The notes under the pieces were generated by a model that ran no database searches, had not been told where the DNA came from, and was given only the letters and a program-made list of their open reading frames with translations. The translations under genes were made by a program, and so were the position numbers. Positions 11,341 to 16,841 of a DNA stretch of 29,747 bases are shown one piece after another. Positions within the stretch are counted from its first letter, which is position 1. Every line of letters starts with the position of its first letter. The stretch is taken from the NCBI GenBank assembly GCA_020536535.1, contig JAHLWZ010001008.1, forward strand, positions 1 through 29,747. The letters are read 5' to 3'. The DNA comes from Pelomyxa schiedti (taxonomy: Eukaryota > Protista > Evosea).

Positions 11341-14300
11341 ACAGCGACATAAGATACCTTCACGAGACCACTCCTTTTGTAAGTTGATGCAATAAACTCA
11401 GAATCAGGAGAAAATTGGCAACTCAACACCTAAAAAAGATTCAGTGAGTGATATGGCTTGGTTTGAAACCTCATTGGGTCCAGTCATCTCTCCCAAGTGT
11501 TTGCTCTCGAAGATTCTCTTGTTTACCCAGATTGCATGTGGGCTCTGAATCTCCTGTAGTAATTTCATAGCTGCAGTTGAGACCATAGATGATTCATCAG
11601 GTAATGCTGCTGCTTGCTGAATAGTGCATAACGGGTGAAGAGAAAGGGCTGTATAAGAGTGCATGACAAATTTTCTGAACAAAAATGAGTACGGAAGAAA
11701 GTAGAACTGGGGCACAATATACTTGAAAGACTGTAATTTTTTTGAGACATGATCCAGTGGTATCATATTGAAGTCTTCAACTAGCATTGGGGCCATATGA
11801 AGGCTGCATTTGCATTGAATGAACTGAAGGTCACAAAGTACATTTTCCACAGATTCCCAATCACCTTTAACACATTAGAATATTTCAATTAATTAGCCAT
11901 CCACCTGCTTGCACGAGATGATAAGGTAATTCAGAGATGGCATGTGGGTGTGCTGTTCTCCATATCAAGTTCCCATTGGAGTCTTTAATGTGAGATTGCT
12001 CAAGGAAGTGGTCTGCCAGTTTCTTGTGAATTTCTACTCGTTCAGGTTCCTGTGACAGAAATCGAGCATGAACTGCGCATTATTTGTACAAAAAAGTTAT
12101 TGAGGAGACAAGACCATGTACCTGCTTTAGCCAACTGTTGATGGAAGAAATCGACTCGTCCTTCATTGTTACTACCGACGTTCCTTAATAGCATCTTCAA
12201 CGAAAGGAAGACTGCTGTCCATAATGCAGGAGGAACTGCCAGACACTCCACAATGTCGCTCACAAACAAACCATGCCTGGCACATCTGAGTAGAGAAAGG
12301 GTAGTGCGAACGACATCAGCCCCAATTTCTGTTTGGAGTCTTTTCAGAACAGTTCCCAGAAGATCTGTGTTGAGACTTGTAAGAGGGGACGCGAACCTTA
12401 CCCCACTCACCGGGAATACTATCAGGAAATGACAGAATTTTATCAGAGAGCCTCTCAAATGATCCGAATAGGCGAAGTTCCTCACAGGCCACTGATAAGT
12501 ATAAAGGATTCCCACTTGCACTTTTGGAGAGAAGTTGTTGCATCTGAAGGGAATCCAACTTTTTGTTATAAGGAGACAACAGTTGCTCAACGATCTCCTG
12601 CCTAGTAGGTGTAACAACTAAAATCCATCAAAATTCTTCACACCTATGTGTCATATCAAGCTCAGGTACTTGTAATTCAGGAGTTTTGCGTGATCTCAGT
12701 ACATCAAGGCAATCGCCTGCCAGACAAGAAACAACTATTTTCACGTTGCGTGGCAGAGTGGCAGGCAACCACGCAAGCCTGTGGCTATTATTGAAATCTT
12801 CCAGCTGGTTCAACGCATCTATGACAATAAGTAACTTATCTCGCTCGGTGGCAATCTGGCTGTATGTTAAACATTCGAGTCCATTGGTAAAGCTATACTT
12901 TCTGAAGAAGCTGCTGCCAAGTGGCTTCCAACTCGGAAAAATCTGTGAATGTTCCCACTTCAAAGGCGTAATAGTGTGCTATTTCATTGCATAATCGCGT
13001 GAGCATTTTGGTTATATCAGTACTTGTTGGGCTTCCCCCAATAAAGTGAGGAAGAACAAATGTGTCTCTTCAAAACGTAAGATGAAATCAGAAGAATAAT
13101 GTGTAAAATGAAACCTGTAGCTTGCTGAGTAGCGCCTCACAAAATGAGCTAACAAGGAACTCTTTCCTGATCCAGGAGTTCCTATTACAGCAAGAGCTCT
13201 GGAATTGGAGTCATCCCGAGCATAAGTATCCAGAGCTTCAAGAAGTGATTCTCTGCCTACAAATCGTCCACCACGCAACTCGATGAACTCCTCATGGTAG
13301 GATCTGGGAAAAGTGGGTGAGGCTTTTTTTTGCTTGACCAAGCCACCTTTCTACTGCTAATGGGCTCCTAGGAGCTACTGCAGAGGGGTATATTCTTTCT
13401 ATTGCAGCCCAAACATCAGTCTCAAATTTTTCAGCGAGAGTTTTTAAATTCATTGCAGTTCCTTCTCCTATCAAGAGATAAGAGGAAATAGTGACAGGAA
13501 TATATCCGTACCATTATACTGTGGTGTGTACTCAAATATGGAAGAGAAATTTTCTCTAATTGTAGATTTAAGCTTAGTCATCTGTTGTACTTTGACTGGT
13601 AGCTCGTCTTTCCACTGTGCTTTTACCTGGAACTTGTTACAGAGGATGAAATAAACTGCTATGGGTACCGTTGATGGCAATGAATCCAAGAAGGATGGAT
13701 TTCGGAAATAAAAAAGGGAGGCATGGCTGGAGTTGTTCTTTTGATCTATAGCACCACATTGTACCTATCTGATCTTAGACCAACACTCTTAGGGGTATTG
13801 CTCACTTCCATAGCTGTGACACTGAGTCCATTTTGCCACCGGAATTTGATTTTAACTTCATCAGGCACTTCATTTGGTTCAGGTATCCACCCGTATCTAC
13901 TCCGTTTTTGGTGATTTGTTTTGAAGTGGGTTTTTCTACCTTTCACCAAGGAAACAACAGAAGACATTCGATGAAGAAGCAGTGTCCAGGCAGAGCTTAA
14001 CAACTTGGTTTTGTTTTGAGTCTTCTTCCGTGATTCCCCATCTAGGGCATGTAAGTGGCGAAAAAAAAAGCACTTCTTGGTTTGCCTGAGATCCGCTTCA
14101 ACTAAGTGTATCTTTCTTGCCAGGCACCGCTCCCTGAGTTTGGGAATTACCTGAGATGGTTTGTTTCGTAGTTAACCAGCTTGATGGAAAAAAAGACTGG
14201 ACACATTTTTAATTAAAATATCGCGCTCAGAATTCATGTCCACAAAAGTGGAAGAAAGAAACAAGTTAATAGTGCGCCAGACATCTGTATCATCTAATAA

Positions 14301-16841: not shown

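Follow-up and report, generated by a model that had tools for sequence, protein, structure and literature searches.

An internal NIR (DUF4062) domain with a TIR-like fold in an ankyrin-NACHT-WD40 protein of Pelomyxa schiedti

Organization of the locus and gene structure

The window analysed here is the complete 29,747-bp scaffold JAHLWZ010001008.1 of Pelomyxa schiedti (assembly GCA_020536535.1), which carries an NLR gene on the minus strand at 8901-16841. Its product of about 2,000 amino acids consists of a Pro/Lys-rich N-terminus, an ankyrin array, a NIR domain, a NACHT domain, a weakly matched winged helix, an APAF1_C helical domain and WD40 propellers. A preliminary description of the sequence had placed a DUF4062-like module at 13746-14423, between the ankyrin array and the P-loop. 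This segment is the N-terminal part of a NIR (DUF4062) domain with a TIR-like, flavodoxin-type alpha/beta fold, and the order of the Pfam matches (ankyrin, NIR, NACHT) agrees with the proposed placement. The complete domain extends from 14279 to about 13390 over seven exons, and the interval 13746-14423 covers about the N-terminal 60% to two thirds of it, from strand A to the catalytic Glu in helix C. The features of the gene are listed below from its 5' end.

16532..16841, minus strand: first confident exon; N-terminal region of low complexity, rich in Pro and Lys and free of Pfam domains
14492..16485, minus strand: ankyrin array of about 490 amino acids in about 11 exons, with introns of 37-58 nt (Ank_2, E 1.3e-43; Ank, E 3.5e-40)
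14395..14446, minus strand: linker exon (LGVKFMTFAGAPPTISP) from the ankyrin array to the NIR domain, kept in the homologues P0001 and P0034
14205..14348, minus strand: NIR exon 1, strand A and helix A (WRTINLFLSSTFVDMNSERDILIKN); first codon of the domain, Trp at 14279-14277
14086..14150, minus strand: NIR exon 2 (VIPKLRERCLARKIHLVEADLR), end of helix A and strand B
14042..14085, minus strand: GC-AG intron of 44 nt, stop-free jointly with 13939-13897
13940..14041, minus strand: NIR exon 3 (WGITEEDSKQNQVVKLCLDTASSSNVFCCFLGE-R), BB loop, helix B and strand C, with an unusual Thr at 13983-13981
13806..13896, minus strand: NIR exon 4 (YGWIPEPNEVPDEVKIKFRWQNGLSVTAME); its final codon, GAA at 13808-13806, is the Glu matching TEP1 E1008
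13669..13764, minus strand: NIR exon 5 (VQCGAIDQKNNSSHASLFYFRNPSFLDSLPST), rest of helix C and strand D
13627..13668, minus strand: in-frame GT-AG intron of 42 nt without a stop, placed by comparison with homologues
13512..13626, minus strand: NIR exon 6 (VKAQWKDELPVKVQQMTKLKSTIRENFSSIFEYTPQYN-G), helix D and strand E
13347..13467, minus strand: NIR exon 7, helix E (...LAEKFETDVWAAIERIY) and a short helical linker to NACHT; the match to TEP1 ends near 13390
11428..13303, minus strand: NACHT NTPase, winged-helix region and APAF1_C-type helical domain (Pfam, in the corrected frame)
8901..11373, minus strand: WD40 beta-propeller region of about 600 amino acids, to the stop codon (Pfam; exon model approximate)

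Translation of 13746-14423 on the plus strand gave stops throughout. Both peptides quoted in the preliminary description were recovered on the minus strand, INLFLSSTFVDMNSERDILIKNV within the open reading frame (ORF) 14172-14423, which terminates in ...DDTDVWRTINLFLSSTFVDMNSERDILIKNV..., and RYGWIPEPNEVPDEVKIKFRWQNGL within the ORF 13746-14003, which includes ...RYGWIPEPNEVPDEVKIKFRWQNGLSVTAMEV.... On the same strand, ankyrin-like ORFs lie upstream of these peptides, and the P-loop GTPGSGKS followed by WD40-like ORFs lies downstream. The gene is eukaryotic, and its very short introns account for the small size of the ORFs. With a self-trained exon-chain model, about 40 introns of 44 ± 8 nt were located in the whole gene, remarkably uniform in length and with a weak donor consensus. 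They are canonical GT/GC-AG introns, and a coding sequence of about 6 kb is open across about 45 spliced exons. This fits the genome of P. schiedti, for which 7.43 introns per gene and 1.59% of GC-AG introns have been reported (PMC8887013).

The NIR domain itself is split by spliceosomal introns of 41-54 nt. Two small exons, 14150-14086 (VIPKLRERCLARKIHLVEADLR) and 14041-13940 (WGITEEDSKQNQVVKLCLDTASSSNVFCCFLGER), lie between the quoted peptides; jointly the two, the second encoding WGITEEDSKQNQVVKLCLDTASSSNVFCCFLGE(R), carry DLRWG and G-x-RYG, motifs expected of DUF4062. The remainder of the domain (FYFRNPSFLDSLPS... to ...AAIERIY) is encoded by the exons 13764-13669, 13626-13512 and 13467-13347. 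As an outline of the module, the interval 13746-14423 held for the N-terminal part; the last third lies downstream, four introns fall inside the interval, the two short exons had been missed and the quoted peptides are not contiguous.

Three of the introns contain no stop and were recognisable through comparison with homologues only: 14085-14042 (GC-AG, 44 nt) and 13939-13897 (43 nt), which together amount to 87 nt, and 13668-13627 (42 nt). Since they keep the frame, the 42-nt intron alone and the other two as a pair, ORF reading and simple gene models pass through them silently. In-frame introns of 42-44 nt without a stop make a reading at the ORF level misleading, a lesson for the P. schiedti genome. 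A naive longest-open-frame exon chain and the uncorrected self-trained model both read through the stop-free introns, so that the exon with DLRWG...GER and a stretch of the NACHT helical region came out garbled. The exon model was corrected by homology and validated by alignment with human TEP1. Upon removal of the intron 13668-13627 the TEP1 alignment showed no gap at that place, and an intron sits at this very position in the homologue P0001, which breaks off inside it. The alignment of the spliced product to the TEP1 crystal chain with only small gaps provides independent support for the splicing model. A junction after SVTAMEV (...SNTPKSV/DQK) was rejected, the homologues favouring ME/VQCGAI.

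Identity and fold of the domain

The spliced domain matched the Pfam family DUF4062 (PF13271) at 42.2 bits and E 9.4e-11, the gathering cut-off being 24.7. The resemblance noted earlier to the domain preceding NACHT in NWD1-type proteins was thereby borne out; that domain is DUF4062 and has the same placement in NWD1, NWD2, TEP1 and NPHP3 (doi 10.64898/2026.05.01.722283). An exhaustive phmmer search of 1.84 billion cluster representatives yielded 9,331 relatives at E <= 0.001. The TEP1 TIR-like crystal chain 11gz_A (220 residues) was aligned from residue 3 to 218 with an E of 2.4e-35, and with the alignment profile as query the E value was 6e-61. The signature motifs FxSSTFxD...ER, DLRWG, RYG[WY]xP and SxTxxE are all present, each of them at least 90% conserved in a 40-sequence alignment and among the best 150 of the 9,331 relatives. 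NCBIfam and PADLOC 2023 have no model for the NIR domain and matched the P-loop alone.

An AlphaFold2 model based on the 40-sequence alignment reached a pLDDT (predicted local distance difference test) of 90.5 and a pTM (predicted template modelling score) of 0.86. Strands and helices alternate in beta-alpha-beta order, giving the parallel five-stranded sheet flanked by helices of the TIR-like fold. Plant and animal TIRs come closest in fold, with an identity of 7-16% in the structural alignments, and the structural neighbours show the same pattern that Le Mouellic et al. gave for DUF4062 (doi 10.64898/2026.09.04.749371). No TIR-family profile was present among the Pfam matches up to E = 1, so that the likeness to TIR is one of fold only. 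The grouping with TIR-like folds, put forward in the preliminary description, agrees with the match to the TEP1 chain, with the predicted structure and with the three 2026 preprints on the family.

In these preprints the fold and activity of the family were established, and the Pelomyxa domain is a further member of it and not a new type of module. Osinski et al. identified the domain as a TIR-like NADase in bacterial Swarozyc and human TEP1 (doi 10.64898/2026.05.01.722283). Le Mouellic et al. renamed it NIR, reported depletion of NAD+ by Avs2-NIR, Vulcan and Vesta, and detected NIR in 76% of Amoebozoa, for the most part at the N-terminus of NLR-like proteins (doi 10.64898/2026.09.04.749371). 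Ibarra-Chavez et al. described the Evangelion system (doi 10.64898/2026.06.25.731849). A Glu-dependent conversion of NAD+ to ADP-ribose (ADPR) and nicotinamide has been demonstrated for KpSwz, PsAvs2, Vulcan/Vesta, Eva01 and TEP1 (doi 10.64898/2026.05.01.722283, 10.64898/2026.09.04.749371, 10.64898/2026.06.25.731849), and the earlier remark that the biochemical activity of such a module is unknown is outdated for the family.

The catalytic residue of TEP1 is E1008, and the substitutions R908A and R976A lower the activity; the isolated TEP1 domain gains in specific activity as its concentration rises (doi 10.64898/2026.05.01.722283). The equivalents of E1008 are E97 in KpSwz and E108 in PsAvs2 (2026 NIR preprints). 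Positions in chain 11gz_A are converted to TEP1 numbering by adding 893, an offset checked with R908, R954 and R976, by which E1008 is the second Glu of SVTEMEV (chain position 115). The corresponding SVTAMEV of Pelomyxa retains this Glu, encoded by GAA at 13808-13806 as the last codon of its exon. All 150 aligned sequences of the best 150 relatives have a Glu here, so the conserved Glu that the preliminary description had recommended looking for is present. The preceding residue, Ala in Pelomyxa, is Ala or Glu equally often in these relatives. The Arg of RYG (TEP1 R976) is retained as well, as it is in 148 of 151 sequences among the closest relatives.

Architecture of the whole protein

Downstream of the NIR domain, the NTPase region matched AAA_16 (E 1.5e-11), NACHT (E 1.5e-10; 41.6 bits, cut-off 26.7), NPHP3_N (E 1.1e-9) and APAF1_C (E 1.4e-6; 28.7 bits, cut-off 22.8) in Pfam. 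Walker A (GTPGSGKS, exon 13303-13115) and Walker B (LLIVIDALNQLED) are both intact. The match to HTH_NWD1 (PF25469) was weak, with an E of 0.005 and 17.2 bits against a cut-off of 27. The C-terminal propellers were recognised as WD40 (E 3.9e-71) and, above its cut-off, as Beta-prop_TEP1_2nd (E 1.4e-31). With both Walker motifs, a helical domain and C-terminal WD40 repeats, the protein is a NACHT-WD40 STAND NTPase in which the NIR domain takes the effector place of a sensor-STAND-effector arrangement.

Pfam scans of the model of about 2,000 amino acids found no further effector family, whether death-fold, TIR, nuclease, protease or another, which leaves NIR as the sole recognisable enzymatic output. 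The claim that the segment is the only candidate effector domain therefore stands for enzymatic and adaptor domains as far as Pfam sees them, and less so for the ankyrin array (about 500 amino acids), which may form an additional interaction surface.

Relatives and comparison with known systems

The best 150 of the 9,331 relatives comprise 92 proteins of NIR-NACHT type, 40 of NIR-NACHT-WD40 type and eight with ankyrin repeats upstream of NIR. Full-length ankyrin-first proteins are found in EukProt transcripts of Pyxidicula operculata, Flabellula baltica and Rhizamoeba saxonica and in metagenomes, the environmental relatives being P0001, P0002/L002, P0063, P0072 and P0075. With the Pelomyxa model they align collinearly over 1,900-2,000 residues, at 28-30% identity overall and 39-56% in NIR. 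Their architecture is that of Pelomyxa, but they have a Glu in the CLxE[IV] motif of helix B. The metagenomic scaffold L002 (ENA) shows the same ankyrin-NIR-NACHT-WD40 order with short introns at 3927-10312. On a further environmental contig, L001, the ORF called at 402-1310 ends by reading into an intron placed as the 42-nt intron of Pelomyxa; this shared position and the short-intron genes suggest that the environmental contigs probably come from close relatives of Pelomyxa.

No experimental study or named description of the ankyrin-first proteins was found in the literature. None of the three 2026 preprints mentions ankyrin repeats, so that the architecture is undescribed in their text, and the proteins themselves are probably present in their data sets. 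What is new here is modest, namely the ankyrin-first arrangement across Amoebozoa and the helix-B substitution specific to Pelomyxa.

Human TEP1 (NIR at about 896-1113, PDB 11gz) is about 44% identical from strand A to helix C. Both proteins conserve the equivalents of E1008 and R976, and both have an internal NIR domain followed by NACHT and WD40 propellers. They differ at their N-terminus, where TEP1 has TROVE and vWA domains and Pelomyxa an ankyrin array without a link to vaults, and in three residues (R908, R954 and the helix-B Glu of TEP1). Orthology with TEP1 was rejected, since no TROVE or vWA match was found by Pfam in the approximately 640 amino acids upstream of NIR, which are low complexity and ankyrin, and since TEP1 does not exceed other NIR proteins in similarity: it scored 125 bits against 127-202 bits for the best 150 relatives, and many bacterial and protist NIR domains are at least as close.

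NWD1, NWD2 and NPHP3 share the order DUF4062-NACHT-helical-WD40, and Pelomyxa has weak matches to HTH_NWD1, below the Pfam cut-off, and to NPHP3_N. In these proteins, however, NIR is N-terminal and has no ankyrin prefix, whereas it is internal in Pelomyxa.

The bacterial NIR defence systems (Avs2-NIR, Swarozyc, Evangelion, Vulcan/Vesta) have the effector fold and the Glu in common with Pelomyxa, and Avs2-NIR and NLR-like bacterial proteins also follow its sensor-STAND-effector logic. The Pelomyxa gene differs in being eukaryotic: it contains spliceosomal introns, and ankyrin repeats precede its NIR domain. KpSwz gave only a marginal match to the profile (E 0.018), and a protein from a bacterial metagenome-assembled genome (P0042) is 44% identical to Pelomyxa in the NACHT region. 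On L004 (GCA_964268305.1, CAXYAI010000146.1), a contig of a bacterial metagenome-assembled genome, a DUF4062-NACHT gene with 44% identity to the Pelomyxa NACHT region is directly followed by a WD40 gene (10001-14222). An NB-ARC gene, genes with HEAT repeats and an IS21 element lie nearby, which gives the locus the appearance of a defence island.

With the canonical TIRs (SARM1, plant TNL TIRs, MAL/MyD88) the Pelomyxa domain has no sequence-level Pfam TIR match in common, and in published structure-based trees DUF4062 is a family separate from canonical TIRs.

Proposed function and alternative explanations

Taking TEP1, bacterial Avs2-NIR, Swarozyc and APAF-1 as models, we favour with moderate confidence a role of the NIR domain as an NAD(P)+-hydrolysing output triggered by NACHT oligomerisation. 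In the resting state the WD40 propellers, and possibly the ankyrin array, would keep the NACHT module closed, and the NIR domains would be held apart or blocked by their own BB loops. Sensing of a ligand by the repeats would lead to nucleotide-dependent oligomerisation of NACHT, by which the NIR domains would be gathered in an active arrangement. The Glu encoded at 13808-13806 would then cut the nicotinamide-ribose bond of NAD+ or NADP+, with ADP-ribose (phosphate) and nicotinamide as products, and the depletion of NAD+ would arrest or kill the cell, serving as an immune or stress output.

Several observations weigh against this proposal, and most of them would fit a genuine NIR fold that is catalytically silent and serves as a homotypic scaffold or adaptor, recruiting partners after NACHT oligomerisation. 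Most animal TIR domains act in this manner, and NWD1, NWD2 and NPHP3 may do so too. Three of the four human NIR-NACHT proteins, NWD1, NWD2 and NPHP3, carry the Glu and were without NADase activity, both in vitro and when the isolated domains were placed in E. coli (doi 10.64898/2026.05.01.722283; 10.64898/2026.09.04.749371), so that an intact Glu is no guarantee of catalysis. Those assays, however, were performed on resting full-length proteins or on isolated domains without an activator. In Pelomyxa the position of TEP1 R908 is Val and that of R954 is Gln. These positions (20 and 66) vary in the family, the first being Arg in 92 of 144 relatives and the second K, R, Q or E, so that inactivity cannot be read from Val and Gln there. 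In helix B the Glu of CLxE[IV], kept by TEP1 and every ankyrin-first homologue and found in 114 of the 150 relatives, is replaced by Thr (CLDTA, 13981-13983). No published role was found for this Glu; in KpSwz, helices A and B make an autoinhibitory dimer interface (doi 10.64898/2026.05.01.722283). The C-terminal half of helix B is Ser-rich throughout in Pelomyxa. Against a silent domain stand the catalytic Glu, the RYG Arg and all near-invariant motifs, which are kept, and we regard a mere scaffold as unlikely, though the most serious of the alternatives.

An active enzyme could also make a signalling nucleotide, such as cyclic ADPR isomers or ADPR conjugates, for a downstream effector instead of depleting NAD+ in bulk. 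Plant and bacterial TIR domains produce signals of this kind, the fold of the Pelomyxa domain is nearest to plant and animal TIRs, and the possibility has been raised for NIR (doi 10.64898/2026.09.04.749371). All NIR enzymes assayed, however, gave only ADPR (or ADPR-phosphate) and nicotinamide, with no further ADPR derivatives from TEP1 (doi 10.64898/2026.05.01.722283), and no candidate receptor gene adjoins the NLR gene within the window. Such a product is improbable.

The possibility that the gene is a decaying pseudogene or an assembly artefact, with a functionless domain, is raised by three observations. The assembly was derived from amplified single cells (PMC8887013). The protein was not returned by three large public protein searches, in which the best match was 56% identical; other P. 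schiedti proteins, including neighbours, are present in the searched collection, and the gene is probably unannotated or mis-modelled in the public annotation. Finally, the first confident coding exon (16532-16841) has no ATG, which places the true start upstream. A candidate 5' exon with an ATG at 17136 (MDLLGVLLG...NPFLVAL) resembles by eye the M[DQ]FL...HPF start of the homologues, with alignment scores within the range of shuffled sequences; it would entail two longer introns (about 78 and 59 nt) and a Lys-rich stretch like the N-termini of the homologues. The 10-mer GTGTCTGGTA is present twice near the junction of this candidate exon (16842-17136, minus strand). Decay or artefact is nevertheless very improbable, given a frame of about 6 kb that is open over about 45 exons with very uniform GT/GC-AG introns, the integrity of every invariant residue and the collinearity of the product with full-length transcripts of other amoebae. 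The reading of the segment as only a linker or an ankyrin-capping helix had nothing in its favour and is refuted.

A broader and more speculative picture can be drawn, which we offer tentatively and consider rather unlikely as a whole. The ankyrin-NIR-NACHT-WD40 proteins might form an undescribed, Amoebozoa-wide clade of innate-immune receptors (Archamoebae and several Tubulinea), in which the ankyrin array gates or targets an internal NADase. Pelomyxa is an anaerobe packed with bacterial and archaeal endosymbionts, and it might control infection or symbiont load through collapse of NAD(P)+; the Glu-to-Thr substitution in helix B might alter an autoinhibitory or oligomerisation interface.

The locus contributes an NIR-NLR of an anaerobic archamoeba, modelled with confidence and encoded by a gene apparently missing from public protein sets, together with an ankyrin-first variant of the NIR-NACHT-WD40 architecture that recurs across Amoebozoa. 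Human TEP1 is so far the only eukaryotic NIR protein shown to be active, and the function of TEP1 as a protein is obscure. A compact protist domain, about as similar to TEP1 as given above and with the full catalytic signature, makes a cheap extra test case and bears on whether eukaryotic NIR-NLRs are NAD+-depleting executioners.

Neighbouring features of the window

Scanning the window for Rfam families and tRNAs gave no match. A gene for a calcineurin-like metallophosphoesterase is located at 17276-18043 on the plus strand, divergent from the NLR gene; the intergenic region shared by the two is roughly 150-400 bp, depending on the start of the NLR. The region 22725-24476 contains a Ser/Thr/Pro-rich ORF of 286 amino acids on the plus strand and an ORF with SQSxS-type repeats on the minus strand, neither of which matched a Pfam family. 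An ORF of 236 amino acids of the TLC/ceramide-synthase type (28825-29535, minus strand) shares 99% identity with 'Ceramide synthase hyl-1 [Pelomyxa schiedti]'. The GC skew flips sharply between 23 and 25 kb, from -0.27 to +0.34.

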